64,000 bases of DNA from Deltaproteobacteria bacterium (GTDB lineage Bacteria; Myxococcota_A; UBA796; CAJQPC01). The notes beneath the pieces are model-generated. The model searched no databases, had not been told where the DNA came from, and was given only the letters and a program-made list of their open reading frames with translations. Below, one piece after another: positions 13,985 through 48,801 of the stretch (its first letter is position 1; each line of letters starts with the position of its first letter). Made by a program: the position numbers and the translations under genes. The stretch is taken from contig JADJIW010000040.1 of NCBI GenBank assembly GCA_016706815.1, forward strand, positions 16,251-80,250, written 5' to 3'.

Positions 13985-15070
13985 TCACTCCACCGTCATC
14001 GACACCGCGTCGCCGACGGCGATGGGGCGGCTGGCGTCGACGACGATGGCCGCGGCGTGATCCTCCTCCACCCGAGTGACGACCACACGCCCGACGACCT
14101 GATCGGGGATCGCCAGATCCTCGTGATCGACGCCGAAGTTCTCATCGCGGTGGTGGATGATGAAGAAGCTGTTGCCCACCCGAAGGCCGTCCGCGCGCCC
14201 ACGGTCGAGGAAGACCGTCTCTCCTGTGGCCGCGAGCTCGTACTGATCGAGGCCGCTGCGGGCGATGATCACGCCGTCGAGATCCCCCTTGGGCGCGGTC
14301 GTCGGGAGCTTGGCGGTGACGGGGTAGGCCGGGCCGACACGATCCCCGCGGCGCATCTCACGGAAGCTCCGGCGCACCACCGCGGAGACCATCTCATCGG
14401 TGGTGTGAACCACCCGAAGCTCGGCGACGACGTGGTAGAGCCTGCCGTAGCGTAAGTCTTTGGCGTCGGGGTGACGCACCTTGCGGCCCTCGCGGTACAC
14501 GGCGATCACGTCGCCGCAGGCCACCAGGTCGGGGTCGTCCATCCGCAGGTAGACCAGATCGCCCTCGCCGAGATGCGTCGCGCCGGTCTTCGCGTACTTC
14601 ACCTCGCCCCAGAGCTCCAGCTCATCGGCCAACATCGAGGCCGTGGTGTAGGTGGCCGCGGGGTAGGCCGAGGTGAAGTTGATGTCGGGGCCACACTCGG
14701 GCTCGGAGAGCTCAAAGTCGGCGGCATCGACGATGTAGCCGTCTTGGGCGCCACCATCGAGCTCAAGCCCCGGAGGGTCCAAGAGCGTGCCAGGGCGGAA
14801 GACGATGACGTTGCCGGGGTAGATCCAGTGGGGGTTCGTGATGTAGTCGTTGAACGACCACAACCTCGGCCAGTAGCCGGCGTCGCCCATGAACCGCGAC
14901 GAGATGTCCCACAGGGTGTCGCCCGTCTGGATGACGTAGCGGTCGGGCGTCGAGTCGCTCAGCTCAACGGCGTTTGTGGCCACCACGACCCCACCTTCTT
15001 GGGCCAGCGCGGGGCTCGCGCTCATCAGCAGGGCGGCGGCGAGGGCCGACCCCAACAACGTACGCAGCAT
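13985..15070 (-). CDS. Secreted LysM domain protein
   Basis: Track ORF with a signal peptide (LAAALLMSASPALA) and a LysM motif (YVIQTGDTLWDISSRF). Confidence 0.75.
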   Translation of the reverse strand: MLRTLLGSALAAALLMSASPALAQEGGVVVATNAVELSDSTPDRYVIQTGDTLWDISSRFMGDAGYWPRLWSFNDYITNPHWIYPGNVIVFRPGTLLDPPGLELDGGAQDGYIVDAADFELSEPECGPDINFTSAYPAATYTTASMLADELELWGEVKYAKTGATHLGEGDLVYLRMDDPDLVACGDVIAVYREGRKVRHPDAKDLRYGRLYHVVAELRVVHTTDEMVSAVVRRSFREMRRGDRVGPAYPVTAKLPTTAPKGDLDGVIIARSGLDQYELAATGETVFLDRGRADGLRVGNSFFIIHHRDENFGVDHEDLAIPDQVVGRVVVTRVEEDHAAAIVVDASRPIAVGDAVSMTVE

Positions 15071-24036: not shown

Positions 24037-25248
24037 TTGAGCGCGGCGGGCGTCGTGGCGCTGGGCGACCTGCGCGGCGCGGCGACGGCGTTTGTTGGCC
24101 TCACCAGCCTGTGGTCCCTCGGGGCCCTGGGCGCGGCGTGGGCGCACCGGGCTCAACCCTCCGCCGCCTGGGGCTGGCTGGCCTTGGGCGCGGCGCTGCG
24201 TGTGGGGATGCTCTTCTCCCCGGCGAGCCTCTCCGATGACGTCTACCGCTATCTCTGGGAGGGTGAGGTGATCGCCGCCGGGCTCAACCCCTTCTTCTAC
24301 GCGCCGAGCGACCCTGCGCTCACGCCCTTGCGGGATGCGGTCTGGGCCCAGGTGAACCACAAGGACGTCTCGACGATCTACCCGCCGGGGGCCTTGTGGC
24401 TGTTTCGTGGCGTGGTGGCGCTCACGGCCTCGCCTGTGGGCTGGAAGATCCTGTCCGGGGCCTGTGATCTCGGCGTGGCGGCGATCTTGTGGCGGCTGTG
24501 CGCGGCGCGCGGGATCGCCGCCTGGGCGCCCGTGGCCTACGCGCTGCACCCCTTGCCGATCATCGAGACCGCGGGGAGCGGGCATCTGGAGGGGCCCGCG
24601 GTCTTGGGGATGATGTTGAGCTTCACGTTCGCCCAGCGGCCGGGCCTCGCCGCGCTCTTCGGGTGGGCGGGGGCCTCGGTGAAGCTCTTGCCGGGCCTGG
24701 TGATCTTGGCCTTGGCCCGCACACCCAGCCGGGGCCTCGCCCTCGGCGTGCTCGTGGGGCTGCTCGCCATCGTGGCGTTGGGCCTGCCCTTTGTAGACGC
24801 CGGGAGCGCGCTTGGGCGAGGGTTCGGGCGGTACTACGAGGCCTGGGCGTTCAACGGCCTCGCCTTCTCGTTCTTGGAGGCGCTCACCGGGGACGGGCAG
24901 CGGGCGCGCTGGCTGGGCGTGGCCTTGGGCGGGCTCTACTGCGGAGACGTTCTGCGCCAGGGGCCCAGCCCGGATCGCCTGATGCTGCACGTCGCCGGGG
25001 CGCTCTTGGTGCTCTCCCCGGTGGTTCACCCTTGGTATGTCTTGTGGGCCTTGGCCCCGGCGATGCTGCGCGGGGTGTGGCCGTGGCTGGTGTTCGCCTC
25101 GTTGTGCCCCTTGTCGTACCTGGCGCTCGCTGAGTACGATGTCCGAGGTTGGCAGGAGGTCTGGTGGATCCCGTGGATCGAACATCCGGCGCTCTGGCTG
25201 AGCCTCCTCGTGTGGTGGGCTCGCTCGACGCCGCCCTCGCCGGGCTGA
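24037..25248 (+). CDS. Polytopic membrane protein, DUF2029/GT87-like glycosyltransferase (putative mannosyltransferase)
   Basis: Track ORF with a TTG start. It has many TM helices and a conserved HPWY motif near the C-terminus (VVHPWYVLWAL). Confidence 0.55.
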   Translation: MSAAGVVALGDLRGAATAFVGLTSLWSLGALGAAWAHRAQPSAAWGWLALGAALRVGMLFSPASLSDDVYRYLWEGEVIAAGLNPFFYAPSDPALTPLRDAVWAQVNHKDVSTIYPPGALWLFRGVVALTASPVGWKILSGACDLGVAAILWRLCAARGIAAWAPVAYALHPLPIIETAGSGHLEGPAVLGMMLSFTFAQRPGLAALFGWAGASVKLLPGLVILALARTPSRGLALGVLVGLLAIVALGLPFVDAGSALGRGFGRYYEAWAFNGLAFSFLEALTGDGQRARWLGVALGGLYCGDVLRQGPSPDRLMLHVAGALLVLSPVVHPWYVLWALAPAMLRGVWPWLVFASLCPLSYLALAEYDVRGWQEVWWIPWIEHPALWLSLLVWWARSTPPSPG

Positions 25249-26327
25249 GCCTGCCACCGGGCCTGCGCCGCCTCGCCATCGCCGTGCCCGACCTCACCCG
25301 GCCTCTGGACACCGTGCGCGTCTTGGCCACCCTTCGCCGGGCGCTGGGGGAGCGCGCCCCCGCGGAGATCACCGTCGTCGTGGGCCTCGGCCTGCACCGC
25401 CCGCTCACCGAGGCCGAGCTCTCGCGGATGCGCGCCGCTTGCGGCTGGCCCGTCGTGAACTCGACCCCCGACGACACCGCCGATCTCGGCCTCGTCCATG
25501 GCATCCCCTGCCAGGTCGCCCACCCCATCGCTGAGGCCGAGATGACCCTCGCCATCGGGGTCGTGGAGCTTCACCAATACGCGGGCTTCTCCGGCGGTCA
25601 CAAGGCCAGCGCCGTTGGCTGCGGCGGTCGTGACACCTTGGCCGCGCTGCACGCCCGGGCCATGGTCTGTGACCCCGAGGTGCAGGTGGGCCGGGTGGAG
25701 GGCAACCCCTTCCGCGAGGCCGTAGACGCCTTGGGTGAGCACAACGGCACCCGCCTCGCCCTGCTCTCTCTGGGCGATGGGCGCTGGATCTTGGGCGAGC
25801 CCCGGGCCGCCCTGCGCGTCGCCGCCGCCGCCCAAGACCCGTGGTGGACGGTGCCCGAGCCCGTCTCCGCCTGCATCCTGCGGGTGCCCGAGGCCAAAGC
25901 GGCGAACTTTTACCAGGCGAGCCGCGCCGCCACCTACCTCGCGCTCTCGCCCTCCCCTCCCCTCATCGACGGCGCGCGGATCGTGCTCGACGCGCGCTGC
26001 CCAGATGGCGCCGGAGACGGCGATGGGGAGCGCGCCTTCGCATCTCTCATGGCGATGACCGCGCCGCCTTGGCAGAGCTTACTCACCGGGCCGGTGCCCT
26101 CTGGCGCGGGGCTGCAGCGGGCGTTTATGCTCGCGCGCCTCGCCCAGCGGTATCACCTCATCGTCGCCGGGTGTGATCAGCCCGAGGCCCTGCAAAGGCT
26201 GGGGGTTGAGGCCACGTCTTCCCCCGCTTCAGCCGTCGCGCCGGGGGCGCTCACCGTCAATCAGCCGTTCACCCGGCTGCCTCAGCTTCAGCGGCCACCA
26301 CCGGCTTCGGGGACGGCGCCGGGCTGA
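25212..26327 (+). CDS. LarA-family (DUF2088, lactate-racemase N-terminal-like) protein
   Basis: Track ORF 25149..26327. The likely GTG start is near 25212. Motifs AVPDLTRP, GLHRP and HQYAGFSGGHKA correspond to LarA ISSDHTRP, FHRP and HFFAGFSGGRK. Confidence 0.6.
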   Translation: MVGSLDAALAGLSLPPGLRRLAIAVPDLTRPLDTVRVLATLRRALGERAPAEITVVVGLGLHRPLTEAELSRMRAACGWPVVNSTPDDTADLGLVHGIPCQVAHPIAEAEMTLAIGVVELHQYAGFSGGHKASAVGCGGRDTLAALHARAMVCDPEVQVGRVEGNPFREAVDALGEHNGTRLALLSLGDGRWILGEPRAALRVAAAAQDPWWTVPEPVSACILRVPEAKAANFYQASRAATYLALSPSPPLIDGARIVLDARCPDGAGDGDGERAFASLMAMTAPPWQSLLTGPVPSGAGLQRAFMLARLAQRYHLIVAGCDQPEALQRLGVEATSSPASAVAPGALTVNQPFTRLPQLQRPPPASGTAPG

Positions 26328-35753: not shown

Positions 35754-37041
35754 GTCGTGGCCTCCTGGGCGAGCCGCGCGAAGACGGCCCCACGGTGCTC
35801 GAAGTTGTTGAACTCATCAAACGAGGCGCAGGCCGGGGTGAGCAGCACCGCCTGACCGGGCCGCGCGAGGCGACGGGCCAAGGCCACGGCGTCGGCGAGG
35901 CCAGAGACGACGTGGTGGGGATGCTCCCCCAACCCTTGGGAGATCTCCTGGGCGCTGCCGCCGCAGACGATGACCTCCACCGCCGCGCGTGAGAGCGCCG
36001 GGCGGAGCAGGCCGTAGTCCGCGCCCTCTTTGCCTTGGCCGCCGAGGATCACCACCGCCGGGCGATCGACGCTCTCTAAGCCCACCAAGGCGGCGTCGAC
36101 GTTCGTGGCTTTGGAGTCGTTGATCCACAACACCCCGCCCTGCTCGGCCACGGGCTGCATGCGGTGGGGCAAGGCCGTGAGCGCCGAGAGGTCCAGCGCC
36201 GCCAAAGAGGCGCCCAAGGCCCGGGCCAAAGCGGCGGCCACGGCGGCGTTCCAGCGGTTGATCCGGCCCATGACCTTGAGGCCCGAGAGGTCTAGGCGCT
36301 CCCCCTCGATCATGGCGAAGGATCCATCCTCGCCGAGCAGCACACCGGGCTCAGCATCCAGCCAGCGCCGCTGCCCCGGTTTGCCCTCACAGGCGGCCTT
36401 CAGCAGAATGTCTCCATTGGGGACATAGGCCAGCCCGCGGGCGTCATGTGGTCAAAGAGCTTGGCTTTGGCCGCGGCGTACCCCTCCATCGTCCCGTGCC
36501 GGGCGAGGTGGTCGGGGGTGAGGTTGAGGATCACCCCGGCGTCGGGCGCGAAGTCTCCGGCGAGCTCAAGCTGGTAGGAGGAGACCTCGACGACGAGGCA
36601 GTCAAAGTCCCCGCCCACGGCCTCACACAAGGGCGTGCCCAGGTTTCCGCCGACGAAGGGCCGCCGCCCGACCCCACGCAGGAGCTGCCCGGTGAAGTGG
36701 GTGACGGTGGACTTGCCGTTGGTGCCGGTGATCGCCGCCGTGGGCAGGCGCGGCAAGAAGCGCCAGGCGAAGCCCAGCTCCCCCAGCACCTCCACCCCCG
36801 CGGCCAACGCCCGGCGAACCGGCGGCGCCGCGGCGGGCACCCCGGGGGAGACGACGACGAGGTCCACGTCGGTGAGATCGGCGTCGTCATGGCGGCCAAA
36901 GACGTTGTTTGCGCCCTCGACGCCCTCGGAGTCCGCCTTGAGGTCGGTGAGCGTCACCCGCTCTGCGCCCAAGCGCAACGCCAGACGCGCGGCGGCCCGG
37001 CCCGAGAGCCCAGCCCCGAGCACGGTGACCCGACGTGGCAT
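35750..37041 (-). CDS. murD: UDP-N-acetylmuramoylalanine--D-glutamate ligase MurD, split by an apparent 1-nt frameshift near 36425-36445
   Basis: Two track ORFs (36400..37041 N-terminal, 35750..36343 C-terminal). My translation shows ..KAKLFDHMTPAG, then in another frame LAYVPNGDILLKAACEGKPGQRRWLDAEPGVLLGEDGSFAMIEG, both open through a cccgcggg run. Confidence 0.8.
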
Positions 37042-43822: not shown

Positions 43823-44175
43823 TGGGACACCCCGATCGTCACGGTGCGGACCTGAACGTCAGAGACGAGGCCCATGGCCGCGCCGACCTGGCCCAAGCGG
43901 GCGAGGTCTTGGCGGGTGGCCAGCTCAAGGCGCAGGCGCTCTTGTTCGGCCTGACGGGTGGCGAGCTGGGTGTTCACGCGGTCGAGCTCGGCGGCGCTGG
44001 CGCGCACGTCCACCCGAGACCAGACGTAAAACATCAACGAGGCGACGAGCAGCATCGCGAAGGTGAAGTACCGCAGCACCACACCGACCCGCACACCTGC
44101 CCGCGACGCGCCCGCGAGCAGCCCCGCCGCAGAGCGACCGACCCAAGCGCCTCCTAGCTCGCGACCCCATTCCAT
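43819..44175 (-). CDS. ftsL: Cell division protein FtsL-like (single TM + coiled coil)
   Basis: Track ORF in the position between rsmH and ftsI. It has a TM helix and a short coiled coil. Confidence 0.6.
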   Translation of the reverse strand: MEWGRELGGAWVGRSAAGLLAGASRAGVRVGVVLRYFTFAMLLVASLMFYVWSRVDVRASAAELDRVNTQLATRQAEQERLRLELATRQDLARLGQVGAAMGLVSDVQVRTVTIGVSQ

Positions 44176-44227
44176 GACAGACCTCCTACGCCACCTCAGC
44201 CACCGCCGACGTACTGCACCGCTGCCG

Positions 44228-45136
44228 CTACACCCGCTCGATCACCCGGAGCTTCGCCGAGCGCGCCCGGGGGTTCCCCGAGCCCGAGTCCTCGACGGCC
44301 TTCTTCGTGATGAGCTTCGCCGTCGGAACACCGAGGGACCGCCCGTAGGCGTCCTTCTCGGCGTCCAGCCCCGCGAGCGCCCGAAAACGCTGCTTGACCC
44401 GACGATCTTCCAAAGAATGAAACGAGATCACCGCCGCCCGACCGCCCACGGTGAGGCAGCCAGGCAAGGCCGCCAAGAGCCGGTCCAGCTCACCCAGCTC
44501 GTCATTGACGGCGAGGCGAAGGGCCTGGAACGAGCGTGTGGCGGGGTGAATGCGATCCCGAGGGCCGCCCATCGCCCCGGCGATGACCTGGGCGAGCTGC
44601 GCCGTGCCGGTGATCGGCCGCGCGGCGACGATGGCCCGGGCCAAACGACGCGACTGGCGCTCTTCACCGAGGCCATAGAGCAGATCCGCCAGCTCCGCCT
44701 CGGGGAGGCCGTTGACCAGCTCCGCCGCCGTGGTGGGGGCGTCTGGGTCCATCCGCATGTCCAGCGGGCCGTCTCGCATAAACGAGAAGCCCCGGGCGGC
44801 CTGATCGAGCTGGGGGCTCGAGACGCCGAGATCGGCGACGAGGCCGTCCACGGCGCTCACACCGGCCTCGGCCAAGGCGGCTTGCAGCGCGCCGAAGGTG
44901 AAGCGCACGGCGACGAAGCGCTCACCAAACCCGGCGAGGCGGGCTGAAGCGGCGGCGAGGGCGTTGGGGTCGCGGTCGAGGCCGATCACCCGGCCCGTGG
45001 GCCCCGAGGCCTCCAAGAGCCGCTCGGCGTGGCCGCCGCCGCCCAAGGTGCAGTCGAGGTACAGGCCGCCGTCGCGCGGAGCGAGCAGCGCGCAGACCTC
45101 GGACCCCATCACCGTCTCGTGCTGGAACACCGTCAC
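44228..45136 (-). CDS. rsmH: 16S rRNA (cytosine1402-N4)-methyltransferase RsmH (MraW)
   Basis: The track ORF is extended to 45508 across mraZ. The real start is VTVFQHETV (GTG at 45136). The SAM motif is DCTLGGGGHAE. Confidence 0.9.
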   Translation of the reverse strand: MTVFQHETVMGSEVCALLAPRDGGLYLDCTLGGGGHAERLLEASGPTGRVIGLDRDPNALAAASARLAGFGERFVAVRFTFGALQAALAEAGVSAVDGLVADLGVSSPQLDQAARGFSFMRDGPLDMRMDPDAPTTAAELVNGLPEAELADLLYGLGEERQSRRLARAIVAARPITGTAQLAQVIAGAMGGPRDRIHPATRSFQALRLAVNDELGELDRLLAALPGCLTVGGRAAVISFHSLEDRRVKQRFRALAGLDAEKDAYGRSLGVPTAKLITKKAVEDSGSGNPRARSAKLRVIERV

Positions 45137-45140
45137 TGGC

Positions 45141-45593
45141 TCACCCCTTCGTGGCGGGGAGCGCCTGTTGACGAGCCCGGGCGTACTCGTGAATGGCCTG
45201 CTGGCGAGTGGCCTCCCAGCGCGCCGGATCCCAGAGCTCAATCCACTGCATGACGGAGATGAGCACACACTCGCGGTCGAGGCCGGCGTCTTGGCGGAGC
45301 CGGTTGGGGATACGCAGGCGGCCTTGAGGATCCACCGCGCAGTCTTCAGCGTCAGCGAGCACGGCGTGGAAGTATGCTTGAGCGACGGGATCGAACGGGT
45401 CTCGGTCCTGGAACGGACCCTCGACGCGCTGGGCGAAGTAATCCGGGGTGAACGCCCGGATTCCTCCATCCACACACGTGAGCACCAGTGATTCGATCCC
45501 AGCGTCATTGATCTTGTGCCTCAGCCGCGCAGGGAGAGCGATGCGACCCTTGTCGTCCAAAGACGTCGAGACCTGGCAGCGTTCTCCGAGCAT
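45141..45593 (-). CDS. mraZ: Transcriptional regulator MraZ
   Basis: Track ORF with a duplicated MraZ/SpoVT-AbrB-like fold. It is the first gene of the dcw cluster. Confidence 0.9.
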   Translation of the reverse strand: MLGERCQVSTSLDDKGRIALPARLRHKINDAGIESLVLTCVDGGIRAFTPDYFAQRVEGPFQDRDPFDPVAQAYFHAVLADAEDCAVDPQGRLRIPNRLRQDAGLDRECVLISVMQWIELWDPARWEATRQQAIHEYARARQQALPATKG

Positions 45594-45659
45594 TCACCCA
45601 TCCGGGCCTTCGAGTGCACCACCGCGCACCCTTCTGTACCCTACCTCTCCACTCTACTC

Positions 45660-45965
45660 CATTTTGATCCACGTTCAAGGCGAAAGGGGGAAAACGCCCC
45701 ACGAGCCTGATCTCTGGTGGATCCCCCGGCAGGAGCGCCCGGACAGGGGATGCCCTTAATGTGGTTTCCAGCTTGATTTCTTGACGATCCTTGGGCTTTG
45801 GGGCGCAGGATCCACGGCGTCGGGCCGGGTGGATCGTGATCCACCGCGACGATCCACCGCGCGGCCAAGCGCCGCCCGCCGGGGGTGGATCCGGGGGCAG
45901 GGGTGGAGCGTGGTGGAGCGCCGGGCGCCAAACCGCGTCTCAGTGGAGCGCCGTGGAGTGGATCG
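45660..45965. promoter_or_regulatory. Array of about 12 GTGGA(T/G)C / GATCCAC heptamers upstream of mraZ, including four GTGGAGCG repeats phased 10 bp apart. Candidate MraZ or other regulator operator region.
   Basis: Motif positions read from the sequence: 45666(rc), 45717, 45808(rc), 45829, 45838(rc), 45851(rc), 45885, 45903, 45913, 45943, 45953 and 45958. There is a palindrome GTGGATCgtGATCCAC at 45829-45844. Confidence 0.4.
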
Positions 45966-45969
45966 CCGC

Positions 45970-46809
45970 TCAGAGCTCGGCGAGCCAGGCGAGCACGTCG
46001 TCCGCCACCTGCTCCCAGCCGGGCTGGGTCAAGGTGCCGTGGGTGCGGCCAGGCATCACGACGAGGTCCGTGCGCGAGGGCGAGGCCTCATACCGCCGCG
46101 CCATCCGCTCGTTGAGCCCGGCGGGGATGACGTGGTCCTCAGCGCCAGCCACGATCAGCAAGGGCGCGCGCTCCTTCGCCCAGTCCAGCTCCGCCGCGTC
46201 GGTGAGCGGCCCCTTGGCCACCCCTTTGGCCTCGGGCACCAAGCTCGCCTCGTACAGGGCCAAGGCCGCGTCCGACTCGAGGTAGTTGCCGAAGCCGAAG
46301 TGAAACTGCTTGGGGGAGAGCAGGATCGGGTCCATGCCCGGCTTGAGCACCGGGGCGTTTGAGCGCAAGAACGCCGGGGCGAAGCTCGTGAGCCCCTTGG
46401 GAGGGGCGGAGTGCAGCACAACCCCCGCGCTCCCGAGGCCCTCTTGCAGAAGAAGCTGCACGATGAGCCCGCCCATGCTGTGCCCGATGAGGATCGGCGA
46501 GTCCAGACCCGCGACCAGCTCCCGGTGCTGGGCGACGAGCTGCTCAAAGCTCAGCGTGTTGAGCGCCTCTGGGATGTCCGCGCGCAGCGCCGCGGGCTCG
46601 CCGTCATGCCCCGGCCACTCCGGCGCGAGGGTGTTGTAACCCTGGGCCTCAAACACCTCTCTCCAGTCATCCCAGCAGCCCGCGTTGAGGTAGAGGCCAT
46701 GAATGAACACCACCGTCCTCGGCGGCGCGACCCGGGCGGGTGTAGGGAGGCGCTCGGGATCCTCAGCGAAGGCGTAGAGCGTTGAGATCAGGGCCAAAGT
46801 CAGCGTCAT
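45970..46809 (-). CDS. Secreted alpha/beta-hydrolase
   Basis: Track ORF with a signal peptide and a GHSMGG nucleophile elbow. Confidence 0.7.
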   Translation of the reverse strand: MTLTLALISTLYAFAEDPERLPTPARVAPPRTVVFIHGLYLNAGCWDDWREVFEAQGYNTLAPEWPGHDGEPAALRADIPEALNTLSFEQLVAQHRELVAGLDSPILIGHSMGGLIVQLLLQEGLGSAGVVLHSAPPKGLTSFAPAFLRSNAPVLKPGMDPILLSPKQFHFGFGNYLESDAALALYEASLVPEAKGVAKGPLTDAAELDWAKERAPLLIVAGAEDHVIPAGLNERMARRYEASPSRTDLVVMPGRTHGTLTQPGWEQVADDVLAWLAEL

Positions 46810-46906
46810 TCACCACCTCGTTCCCACCTGCATAACTCAGCCTAGGCCCGACGAGCGCGCCGCCGAGCGGGCAGTCGGTTATGCAGGCCCAAAGACGGAC
46901 AGGGCC

Positions 46907-47380
46907 ATGACCAACCCCACGAACAAGCCCCAGAAGCCAAAGACCGTGCGCCCGATCGCCCAGAACCGGCGCGCGACCTTTGAGTTCGAGATCACCGACC
47001 GCTTCGAGGCCGGCATGTCTCTGCTCGGCACCGAGGTCAAGTCCTTACGCAACGGCAAGGCCCAGATCACCGACGCCTACGTCAAGGTAAAAGACGGCGA
47101 GGCGTTCCTACACGCCGCCCACATCGCGCCGTACACCCACGGCAGCGACAACAACCACCTCGCCGAGCGCGTCCGGAAGCTCCTTCTGCAGCCCGCTGAG
47201 ATCGAGAAGATCCGCCGGGCGGTGCAAGAGAAGGGCCTCTCCGTCATCCCCATCGCGATGTACTTCAAGGGGCCCTGGGCAAAGATCGAGATCGCGCTCG
47301 CCCGAGGCAAAAAACTGCACGACAAGCGCGAAGACCTCAAGGCCAAAGCCGACCGGCGCGAGCTGCGCAACGTCCGCTGA
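46907..47380 (+). CDS. smpB: SsrA-binding protein SmpB
   Basis: Track ORF with conserved SmpB N-terminal sequence (IAQNRRATFEFEI..GTEVKSLR). Confidence 0.9.
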   Translation: MTNPTNKPQKPKTVRPIAQNRRATFEFEITDRFEAGMSLLGTEVKSLRNGKAQITDAYVKVKDGEAFLHAAHIAPYTHGSDNNHLAERVRKLLLQPAEIEKIRRAVQEKGLSVIPIAMYFKGPWAKIEIALARGKKLHDKREDLKAKADRRELRNVR

Positions 47381-47424
47381 GCCGAGGTCCACCCCCGCTG
47401 CCCCCGCACGTTCTCGGAGAGACG

Positions 47425-48801
47425 ATGAAGCGCTTGATGACCCTCCTGCTCCCTGTGCTCGGACTCGCCGCAGGCGGCGTCGCGTTGGCGCTCTTGGGCG
47501 ACGGCCAAGAGACCCCGGCCCTCATCACCGGCCTCGTCTCGGGCTTGATGCTCTGCGGCGCCGCGATGGCCCACGCCCCGATGTTGGGTGTGGCGGCCCT
47601 GGGCGCGTACGGCGCGGGCCTCTCGGCGTATCTCGCCGTGCAGCACAAGGTCGCGATGGCCGGCGGGTCGAGCGTCTGCAACATCAACGACGTGCTCAAC
47701 TGCGACCTCGTGAACACCAGCGAGTGGTCTGAGATCGGCGGCTTGCCCATCGCGATGTTTGGCCTCGCGTTCTACGCCGCGCTCACCGTCGTCGGTGTGC
47801 AGGCCTGGCGTGACCGCCCGGGCTTAGACCGCGCCGCCGCCTTCACCTTGGCCCTGGCCATCCCCGGTCTCGGCGTCTCCTTGTTCTTGGGCGCGGTGAG
47901 CCTGCAGCTCGGCGCGTTCTGCATCCTCTGCGTCACGACCTACCTCATCAACGCCCTGCTCGTCGTCGCTGGGGTCCAGGCCCTTCGGGGTGAGCCCTTC
48001 TTCGATCAGCTCCCCTCAGCGCTCACGGGCTACAAAGATCGTTCGTTGCCTCTGGCGCTCATGGGCGCCGTCGTGGGCGGGATGGGCGGTTTTTACCTGT
48101 ACGAGAGCGCCAAGCTCCCCGCCTCGGCCCAGGCCATCGAGGCCGTCAACGACGGCAACGCCGAGAGCGCCGACTACGGCCGGCTCTACGAGCAGGTCGC
48201 GGGCAAGGTGAACCTCCACGGCTACGAGCCCGCCTGGGGCAAACCCGACGCGCCGTTCACCGTCGTCGAGTTCGCCGACTACCAGTGCCCCCACTGCGCG
48301 ATGATGGCCAAAGAGATCAAGGCCGTCTCCGCCAAGTTCCCCGAGATGCGGGTGCTCTACAAACACTACCCGCTGTCCAACATCTGCAACGACCGCATCC
48401 CCTCTCCGGGCCACACCGAGTCGTGTATGGCCTCGGCCGCCGCGGTCTGCGCCACCCAGCAGGGCCGCTTCTGGGAGCTCAACGCGCAGATGTTTGAGAA
48501 CCAGGACGTGCTCAACAAAGAGAACATCCGGTTCATGGCCCAGCAGCAGAACCTCGACATGACCGCTCTGGACGCCTGCATGAGCGACGAGGCCACGAGC
48601 GACCGCGTGCGCAGCGACGTGGCCCACGGCTGGGAGGCCGGGGTCATGGCGACGCCCTCGCTGTTCGTGAAGGGCCTGCTCGACGATCCAACCGCCTGGG
48701 TTCACATCACCAGCGGCTCTGAGGGCCTCGCGCTCTTGATTGAGGCCAAGAAGAAGGGCGTCCGGCTGCCCGCGCCTCGCCCGCCGACGCCGATGGAGTG
48801 A
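47425..48801 (+). CDS. Vitamin K epoxide reductase (VKOR) fused to thioredoxin/DsbA-like domain
   Basis: Track ORF. The N-terminal 4-TM VKOR domain carries CNIND..C and CILC motifs. The C-terminal DsbA-like domain carries CPHC (DYQCPHCAM). Confidence 0.8.
   Translation: MKRLMTLLLPVLGLAAGGVALALLGDGQETPALITGLVSGLMLCGAAMAHAPMLGVAALGAYGAGLSAYLAVQHKVAMAGGSSVCNINDVLNCDLVNTSEWSEIGGLPIAMFGLAFYAALTVVGVQAWRDRPGLDRAAAFTLALAIPGLGVSLFLGAVSLQLGAFCILCVTTYLINALLVVAGVQALRGEPFFDQLPSALTGYKDRSLPLALMGAVVGGMGGFYLYESAKLPASAQAIEAVNDGNAESADYGRLYEQVAGKVNLHGYEPAWGKPDAPFTVVEFADYQCPHCAMMAKEIKAVSAKFPEMRVLYKHYPLSNICNDRIPSPGHTESCMASAAAVCATQQGRFWELNAQMFENQDVLNKENIRFMAQQQNLDMTALDACMSDEATSDRVRSDVAHGWEAGVMATPSLFVKGLLDDPTAWVHITSGSEGLALLIEAKKKGVRLPAPRPPTPME

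Follow-up and report, generated by a model that had tools for sequence, protein, structure and literature searches.

The intergenic region upstream of mraZ is best explained, with better than even confidence on our part, as a composite control region of the dcw cluster, combining a predicted MraZ operator at the mraZ promoter, an inverted auxiliary MraZ operator farther upstream, and a separate class of GGATC sites. As read from the sequence, it is a conserved extension of the known MraZ operator, and the addition of an inverted distal operator and a GGATC cluster makes its layout unusual. The preliminary description of the window (the whole 64-kb stretch of DNA analyzed here) had taken a dense array of GTGGATC and GTGGAGC heptamers upstream of mraZ for a possible MraZ operator. 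That assignment stands in so far as the array belongs to an MraZ control region, with matching boxes, conserved reading residues in MraZ, and conservation upstream of mraZ. It does not stand for a single homogeneous operator, as three layers can be distinguished: proximal boxes, inverted distal boxes, and the GGATC class.

Few bacterial transcription factors are as conserved as MraZ. We take it to be a ring-type octamer or dodecamer that reads DNA through a beta-sheet, rather than a helix-turn-helix tetramer, and to our knowledge all characterized MraZ operators consist of a single run of three or four direct repeats. These operators contain GTG(G/T) boxes, three or four in number, that are separated by 6 nt and repeat every 10 bp, and tight binding depends on three to four boxes being contiguous (PMC12957436). 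In Bacillus subtilis, three GTGG[A/T]G boxes with 4-nt spacers overlap the -35 and -10 elements (bioRxiv 10.1101/2022.02.09.479790). Altered box spacing is tolerated by MraZ at high concentration, and the fibers it forms with DNA contain two or more DNA segments. In cryo-EM structures from 2026, four boxes are contacted by four MraZ subunits.

The mraZ locus and its predicted proximal operator

The window derives from an uncultured Myxococcota bacterium, and the MraZ encoded on the nearest public contig (JADKFE010000010) is 100% identical to its own; the L001 assembly, JADKFE01, has contig names of the long-read type. The genes and elements of the locus are listed in the table below; beyond the hydrolase gene, a VKOR-DsbA gene lies alongside smpB, both being divergent (Pfam and synteny). 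The intergenic region between the hydrolase gene and mraZ (45594-45969, 376 bp) is nearly filled by the repeat region. The heptamer array, which had been described as overlapping the 3' flank of the hydrolase gene, is in fact flanked by the stop codon of that gene (45970-45972) and the mraZ start; the hydrolase gene is outside the regulatory element and marks its boundary. A strict terminator scan found no terminator 3' of the hydrolase gene. At the other end of this gene, a GTGGG-N6-GTGGT sequence preceding the start was considered as a box pair and rejected, as it is not kept in two of the hydrolase-bearing relatives (L002 and L004) and is probably the ribosome-binding region.

Relatives were collected as 13 genome loci and 15 metagenome loci (L015-L029; exact-protein look-ups), and 20 representative lineages, with MraZ proteins 52-100% identical to that of the window, were scored. 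The five close genomes (the window and L001-L004) have MraZ proteins that are 99-100% identical, with clearly diverged distal intergenic sequence. The hydrolase gene is limited to the window, L001, L002, and L004, and is absent from L003 and all other relatives. Where it is missing, smpB abuts the intergenic region directly. The ancestral synteny is VKOR/DsbA preceded by smpB on one side, with mraZ, rsmH, ftsL, and ftsI running the opposite way on the other.

The MraZ protein of the window can be aligned with the Mycoplasma genitalium and M. pneumoniae structures, and both DxxxR motifs are present. Its residues D13, K15, and R17, and D88 and R92, align with the DNA contacts D11, K13, and R15, and D82 and R86, of M. 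genitalium MraZ (PMC12957436). From these conserved residues, the protein is expected to recognize GTGG-type boxes.

Features of the mraZ upstream region and flanking genes (positions in the window)
Feature	Position	Strand	Description	Basis
mraZ	45141..45593	-	first gene of dcw cluster, followed by rsmH, ftsL, ftsI	Pfam PF02381 MraZ, E 1.9e-22, two stretches; synteny
Weaker units AGGGTA, AGGGTG, GTGGTG	45617..45642	-	three units in 5' leader, same 10-bp register	
Core MraZ operator (predicted)	45647..45672	-	P1-P3, 10 bp apart, mraZ-sense	
P3 GTGGAG	45647-45652	-	position -59	
-10-like TAGAGT	45651-45656	-	overlaps P3	
P2 ATGGAG	45657-45662	-	position -69	
P1 GTGGATC	45666-45672	-	position -79	
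-35-like TTGAAC	45673..45678	-	mraZ (dcw) promoter	sequence; TTGnnn before box 1 in relatives
Exact GTGGAKC heptamers	45666-, 45717+, 45809-, 45829+, 45838-, 45851-, 45885+, 45903+, 45913+, 45943+, 45958+	both		
GGATC-class boxes	45709..45964	both	seven GTGGATC plus plain GATC at 45709 and 45786	
Distal GTGGATC copies	45717+, 45809-, 45829+, 45838-, 45851-, 45885+, 45958+	both		
Less GC-rich block	45739..45798	-	52% GC vs 69% in window; midway between box sets; conserved	
Distal MraZ-type boxes	45903..45958	+	two GTGGAG pairs, starts 45903, 45913, 45943, 45953	
Alpha/beta-hydrolase gene	45970..46809	-	between smpB and distal boxes	Pfam Abhydrolase_6, E 4.6e-23
smpB	46907..47380	+	divergent from mraZ	Pfam SmpB, E 3.4e-54

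The sequence at 45617-45678 is predicted to be a canonical MraZ operator of known design. Its boxes have the GTG(G/T) core, recur three times at 10-bp intervals as direct repeats in the sense of mraZ, and lie at the promoter, which in the mraZ sense reads TTGAAC-GTGGATCAAAATGGAG-TAGAGT-GGAG with a spacing of 16 between the hexamers. Only one box of this set, at 45666, had been noticed in the preliminary description. A strict sigma70 consensus scan called no promoter here, since TTGAAC and TAGAGT agree with the consensus at 8 of 12 positions, which is below threshold; the promoter assignment consequently rests on conservation. Indeed, a design of TTGnnn, box, N4, box, and TAnnGT over the third box recurs in the inspected loci, down to an MraZ identity of 52-53%. 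The three weaker units that continue the register could possibly be low-affinity MraZ boxes, and the stretch that contains them is invariant in the five close genomes, but so is the whole proximal 200 bp. Box 1 of L004 reads GTGGAAC, keeping GTGGA while losing GATC. GTGGATC serves as a proximal box in the window, L015, and L012.

Inverted distal boxes and smpB

The distal GTGGAG boxes, 250-300 bp farther upstream than the promoter, face away from mraZ; on the mraZ-sense strand they appear as CTCCAC four times at -365 to -310. They had been described as four copies of GTGGAGCG separated by exactly 10 and 40 bp. Those spacings, the shorter inside each pair and the longer from one pair to the next, are exact for the hexamer GTGGAG, but the fourth copy (45953) reads GTGGAGTG. 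These phased copies, on which the preliminary description had laid most stress, are oriented opposite to mraZ and in relatives lie on the smpB side. Judged as an MraZ operator, the distal set fits in its consensus and period, but not in having a contiguous triple, the sense orientation, or a position at the promoter. Its GTGGAG-N4-GTGGAG pairs agree with the published repeats, which in B. subtilis are GTGG[A/T]G boxes with 4-nt spacers.

The distal boxes are conserved. In an alignment of the five close genomes from -368 to -206, invariant positions make up 58 of 62 within the boxes and 36 of 101 outside them (Fisher P 2e-14, to be read with the caveat that the aligner anchors on repeats). The number of inverted pairs is two in the window and L003 and three each in L002 and L004; among the relatives it ranges from two to five, with the box sequence kept and up to nine boxes in L021. 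The hydrolase proteins of the genomes that bear the gene are 82-99% identical, and all these genomes keep the boxes with smpB some 0.9 kb away. That they are retained at a distance from smpB speaks for a function at the mraZ promoter rather than for a relic in decay. The helical phase between the proximal and distal sets is not conserved, owing to a 13-bp insertion in L001 and one of ~10 bp in L002, which argues against a rigid loop.

Of the 20 representative lineages, 11 have a strict inverted pair ([CT]CCAC-N5-[CT]CCAC) in their intergenic sequence, whereas shuffled sequences would lead one to expect 0.024. L012 and L024 also show inverted pairs with slight degeneracy, and in L026 and L029 one intact inverted box stands beside a degenerate second one. 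The split by orientation is complete: no inverted pair lies closer in than -231, and no forward pair farther out than -111. In the relatives, the inverted pair is 15-130 bp upstream of smpB and in the sense of that gene. In L007, L024, L026, and L027, the boxes on the smpB side follow directly after a TTGCnn hexamer, 15-50 nt from the smpB start. This layout mirrors that of the mraZ promoter, and smpB therefore looks like a direct MraZ target in these four lineages. We found no literature on MraZ in connection with smpB regulation. Promoter-like hexamers flanking the distal boxes were not found in the clade of the window. The sequence upstream of mraZ in Escherichia coli has the three GTGGG boxes near the promoter but lacks an inverted pair farther out, which makes the feature lineage-specific.

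The heptamer array and the GGATC sites

On both strands of the 64 kb, GTGGAKC occurs 46 times, with 11 matches within 45666-45964 and 35 in the other 63.7 kb. The cluster is real: at the background rate (lambda 0.16 per 299 bp) the Poisson probability of at least 11 matches is 5e-17, and the top 300-bp cluster in 200 dinucleotide shuffles had three copies. Of the twelve copies originally counted in about 300 bp, 11 are exact, while the twelfth, at 45953, is GTGGAGT. The phased pair TGGAG-N5-TGGAG occurs three times in the window (128 kb of searched strand; shuffle mean 0.21), each time upstream of mraZ, with one proximal pair on the minus strand and two distal pairs on the plus strand. The 10-bp phasing claimed for the array is confined to the GTGGAG copies and to the boxes near the promoter, and the GTGGATC copies are unphased. 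Within the 64-kb window the array is specific to the spot upstream of mraZ, and the motif is both present and conserved upstream of mraZ in the relatives, so that neither of the outcomes named as refuting in the preliminary description is seen.

A few smaller groupings elsewhere in the window are unlike the mraZ region: a GATC cluster at 14051 is coding, a GTGGR pair at 36697 is inside the dcw coding region, and a GTGGATC pair at 25164 is at the 5' end of a Lar_N ORF.

The GTGGATC copies are irregularly spaced (13, 9, 29, 56, and 112 bp) and of mixed orientation, and two of them form a 7-2-7 palindrome at 45829-45844 (GTGGATCgtGATCCAC), exactly as first described. This region contains the top GGATC/GATCC cluster of the window, with 11 per 300 bp compared to a mean of 1.0. 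Intergenic GATC amounts to 10 in 376 bp versus 2.7 expected (P 4e-4), and similar excesses are seen in the relatives L010 (9 versus 1.2), L015 (9 versus 1.3), and L005 (9 versus 2.5). Overall, GATC is enriched 3-7-fold at the equivalent place in L005, L021, L015, L010, L011, and L017, where it is found in CGGATC and GGGATC contexts without the GTG prefix or the TGG core. Within the close clade, L001 has gained a third 13-bp GGATCG unit.

Since the GATC clusters of these relatives lack the GTG prefix, the distal GTGGATC copies probably represent a signal separate from the MraZ boxes, here fused to MraZ-like cores. The division between the two is not a clean one in this clade, however, because GGTGGATC is common to eight copies, and, of four substitutions in the relatives, three affect just the first G, which is variable in genuine boxes too. 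The two heptamer types also have GGTGGA(G/T)C in common. The less GC-rich block between the two box sets is invariant in the five close genomes, with variable flanks, and ends in CCTGTCCGG (45739-45747), which is also found in L005, L021, and L017.

Possible mechanism, alternatives and related systems

In the composite reading that we favor, MraZ would act back on its promoter, repressing or tuning it, by way of (G/A)TGGAG boxes in 10-bp phase, of which there are three and perhaps as many as six. The proximal boxes interleave with a putative sigma70-type promoter at 45617-45678, and MraZ subunits on successive major grooves over the -35 and -10 elements would limit transcription as in other bacteria (PMC12957436). 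This part of the mechanism would be canonical and already known. For the rest, we infer MraZ binding at the distal boxes, looping, and the role of the GGATC sites from the sequence. The distal GTGGAG boxes may constitute a second, opposite-facing MraZ operator, descended from the pair at the divergent smpB gene in relatives, which the hydrolase gene has cut off from smpB and which is still under selection. The distal set would most likely be an auxiliary operator acting on the mraZ promoter, with one MraZ oligomer, or two interacting ones, holding both sets and thereby raising local occupancy, whether through DNA looping, through cooperative capture, or as a local reservoir (titration). Bridging of the two sets by MraZ is plausible in view of the four subunits seen on boxes and of the multi-segment fibers. 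The GTGGATC copies, with the core (T)GGATC, would be read by another factor or be subject to a GATC-specific modification, and might overlap weak MraZ contacts. The arrangement of the distal boxes in pairs, rather than as three or four contiguous boxes, counts against this model, and a role as smpB operator would explain their inverted orientation and, in relatives, their smpB adjacency no less well than an auxiliary site for mraZ does.

Several other readings have to be weighed against these data. If all twelve heptamers were MraZ boxes, the whole 300 bp would be one MraZ-coated operator, organized as a nucleoprotein filament or wrap. The 8-mer shared by both heptamer types, the presence of GTGGATC among the proximal boxes here (as box 1) and in L015 and L012, and the tolerance of MraZ for altered spacing at high concentration, together with its fibers, are consistent with this. 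We nevertheless consider it unlikely, given that the GTGGATC copies lack the 10-bp phase and a uniform orientation, that the GATC clusters of relatives occupy the same place without GTG or TGG, and that the genuine proximal box of L004 drops GATC while keeping GTGGA. It seems rather improbable to us that the distal GTGGAG boxes are merely an ancestral MraZ operator of smpB, stranded by insertion of the hydrolase gene and decaying without any role at the mraZ promoter. The smpB-sense pairs close upstream of smpB in relatives, their placement directly after TTGCnn in L007, L024, L026, and L027 as in the mraZ promoter design, and the perfect orientation split would all suit such a relic. The boxes are, however, intact in the four hydrolase-bearing genomes despite the divergence of the spacers and of the hydrolase (82% identity), the pairs have been duplicated rather than lost (as in L002 and L004), and no promoter-like hexamers accompany the distal boxes in this clade. 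A stronger form of bridging, in which an MraZ oligomer loops the two opposed sets over ~250-300 bp and ancestrally co-controlled smpB and dcw, with the GATC boxes as modulators that respond to methylation or to a factor and link the switch to the cell cycle or replication, strikes us as quite unlikely; here, the second operator would be held by those subunits that the opened MraZ ring leaves free of promoter DNA in the cryo-EM structures from 2026.

The GATC boxes could also be Dam-type methylation sites that tune the binding of MraZ or RNA polymerase and couple dcw to replication, a proposal that is compatible with the composite region but which we regard as distinctly doubtful. In its favor, the sites of distant relatives share the GATC core only, with the variable flanks typical of a modification target, the 3-7-fold intergenic enrichment is conserved in several lineages, and GATC overlaps MraZ-type cores in this genome. 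On the other hand, no GATC methyltransferase is found among the genes around the locus, the abundance of GATC across the window is neutral (observed/expected 0.97, neither avoided nor favored, and hence uninformative on methylation), and the preference for G at -1 (GGATC) and the palindrome would equally fit a protein site. We also found no literature tying mraZ control to GATC methylation. Finally, a DnaA-box cluster, a dispersed repeat, and a structured RNA leader are all highly improbable as explanations of the array. GATCCAC resembles the DnaA box TTATCCACA, with which it has ATCCAC in common, but only two sites are within two mismatches of TTATCCACA, none of them ends in CA, and the copies read (G/C)GATCCAC(C/G). 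Long dcw leaders that carry an sRNA (UpsM-like) reportedly occur in Rhodobacter and would offer a precedent for a structured leader or sRNA; the candidate was rejected on a fold z-score of -0.82 and an unfavorable covariation term of +3.48 in the consensus fold of five relatives. An Rfam search of 44000-48000 (E<=1) gave no match in the region and a chance snoRNA match elsewhere. A dispersed repeat (REP or MITE-like) was likewise rejected: the heptamers are not scattered elsewhere in the window, where the other 35 are singletons near the chance level and the next-largest cluster has two copies.

The composite region resembles the operators (MBRs) of E. coli, B. subtilis, and Mycoplasma in its GTGG(A/G)G core, its 10-bp period, its sense orientation, its position overlapping or abutting the mraZ promoter, and its cognate MraZ with both DxxxR reading motifs. 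Unlike these systems, which have a single set of three or four direct repeats, it has an additional conserved inverted 2+2 set 250-300 bp upstream and GGATC boxes between the two sets, and L021 extends the inverted set still further. A functional analogy can be drawn to the auxiliary operators of lac (O1/O2/O3), gal (OE/OI), and ara (O2/I1), which act through DNA looping: there, too, a proximal and a remote operator for one oligomeric regulator are a few hundred base pairs apart, and the less GC-rich conserved block near the midpoint adds to the likeness. Looping is established for lac, gal, and ara, whereas here it would be inferred, with a helical phasing that is not kept among close relatives, and the helix-turn-helix tetramer type of regulator contrasts with the presumed ring of MraZ and its beta-sheet reading. 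Our literature search on MraZ looping and MraZ ChIP-seq returned nothing relevant. The two-operator layout offers a concrete test of whether an MraZ oligomer holds two DNA segments by looping or bridging.

Promoters controlled by methylation are known from E. coli pap, agn43, and dnaA (GATC) and from Caulobacter ftsZ and mipZ via CcrM (GANTC). As in these cases, clusters of a methylation tetramer are located in a cell-cycle promoter, partly over repressor boxes; the difference is that the lineage here is Myxococcota, for which we found no literature on promoter control by GATC methylation. The conserved GATC cluster might mean that a dcw promoter is under control sensitive to DNA modification in bacteria other than the Alpha- and Gammaproteobacteria. 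Should neither this, nor bridging by MraZ, nor control of smpB hold, the region would be an ordinary, well-conserved autoregulatory promoter of MraZ.

Most relatives also resemble divergent gene pairs that share operators, with the box sets facing smpB and mraZ, each in the sense of its gene. Their second set nominates smpB, and hence trans-translation, as an MraZ target, which would link ribosome rescue to division. The window differs from such divergent pairs in that the hydrolase gene lies between the distal set and smpB.

Upstream region of smpB in relatives

A TTGCnn hexamer lies upstream of smpB in several relatives (loci L007, L024, L026, and L027). It is followed by two MraZ-type boxes 10 bp apart in L007, L024, and L027, while L026 retains one such box with a degenerate unit alongside. 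The layout in these four loci mirrors the promoter-operator arrangement of mraZ, and thereby suggests that smpB, and with it trans-translation, is a direct target of MraZ in this lineage. No account of smpB as a direct MraZ target was found in the literature.

The hydrolase gene and its flanks

Between smpB and mraZ, the alpha/beta-hydrolase gene represents a presence/absence polymorphism among near-identical relatives. It is missing from L003, even though the SmpB encoded there is 100% identical to that of the window, and a GCGCTC microhomology marks the junction, immediately adjoining the distal MraZ-type boxes, that is, the four inverted GTGGAG copies. On the smpB side of the gene, a perfect 10-bp inverted repeat (CCTGCATAAC/GTTATGCAGG) is found. 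In the hydrolase gene as well as in smpB, GTTATGCAGG stands ~22 nt upstream of the start codon, an arrangement kept in L001, L002, and L004. The repeat may be a promoter or leader element common to the two genes, and may reflect a duplication at the insertion of the hydrolase gene.

Features in the window and in two relatives
Feature	Sequence	Position	Strand
Lar_N-domain ORF	Window	25149-26324	plus
GTGGATC pair	Window	25164-25179	
Less GC-rich block	Window	45739-45798	
Hydrolase gene	Window	45970-46809	minus
10-bp repeat, CCTGCATAAC	Window	46827-46836	
10-bp repeat, GTTATGCAGG	Window	46878-46887	
GGATCG units with the 13-bp insertion	L001	2720-2745	
Region of the hydrolase junction	L003	2584-2640	

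GGATC boxes and the less GC-rich block

The GGATC boxes are located between the distal boxes and the mraZ promoter. In L001, the closest public relative, a 13-bp insertion creates a third GGATCG unit, giving three direct units with 13-bp spacing followed by the inverted copy; expansion of the GGATC boxes thus proceeds by tandem units of 13 bp. Outside the mraZ region, the only site in the window with two neighboring GTGGATC copies, 9 bp apart (GGTGGATCCCGTGGATCG), is at the 5' end of the Lar_N-domain ORF.

A 60-bp block with 52% GC, compared to 69% for the window, is invariant in five relatives. Its end, CCTGTCCGG, also occurs ~60–70 bp upstream of the -35 element in the more distant loci L005, L021, and L017. 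The block might serve to bend the DNA, to bind an activator, or to act as a second promoter.

Tetranucleotide composition

Over the full length of the window, CTAG shows strong depletion, with 14 sites against 58 expected (ratio 0.24). The ratio of 2.7 for TTAA indicates enrichment, and that of 0.97 for GATC is neutral.
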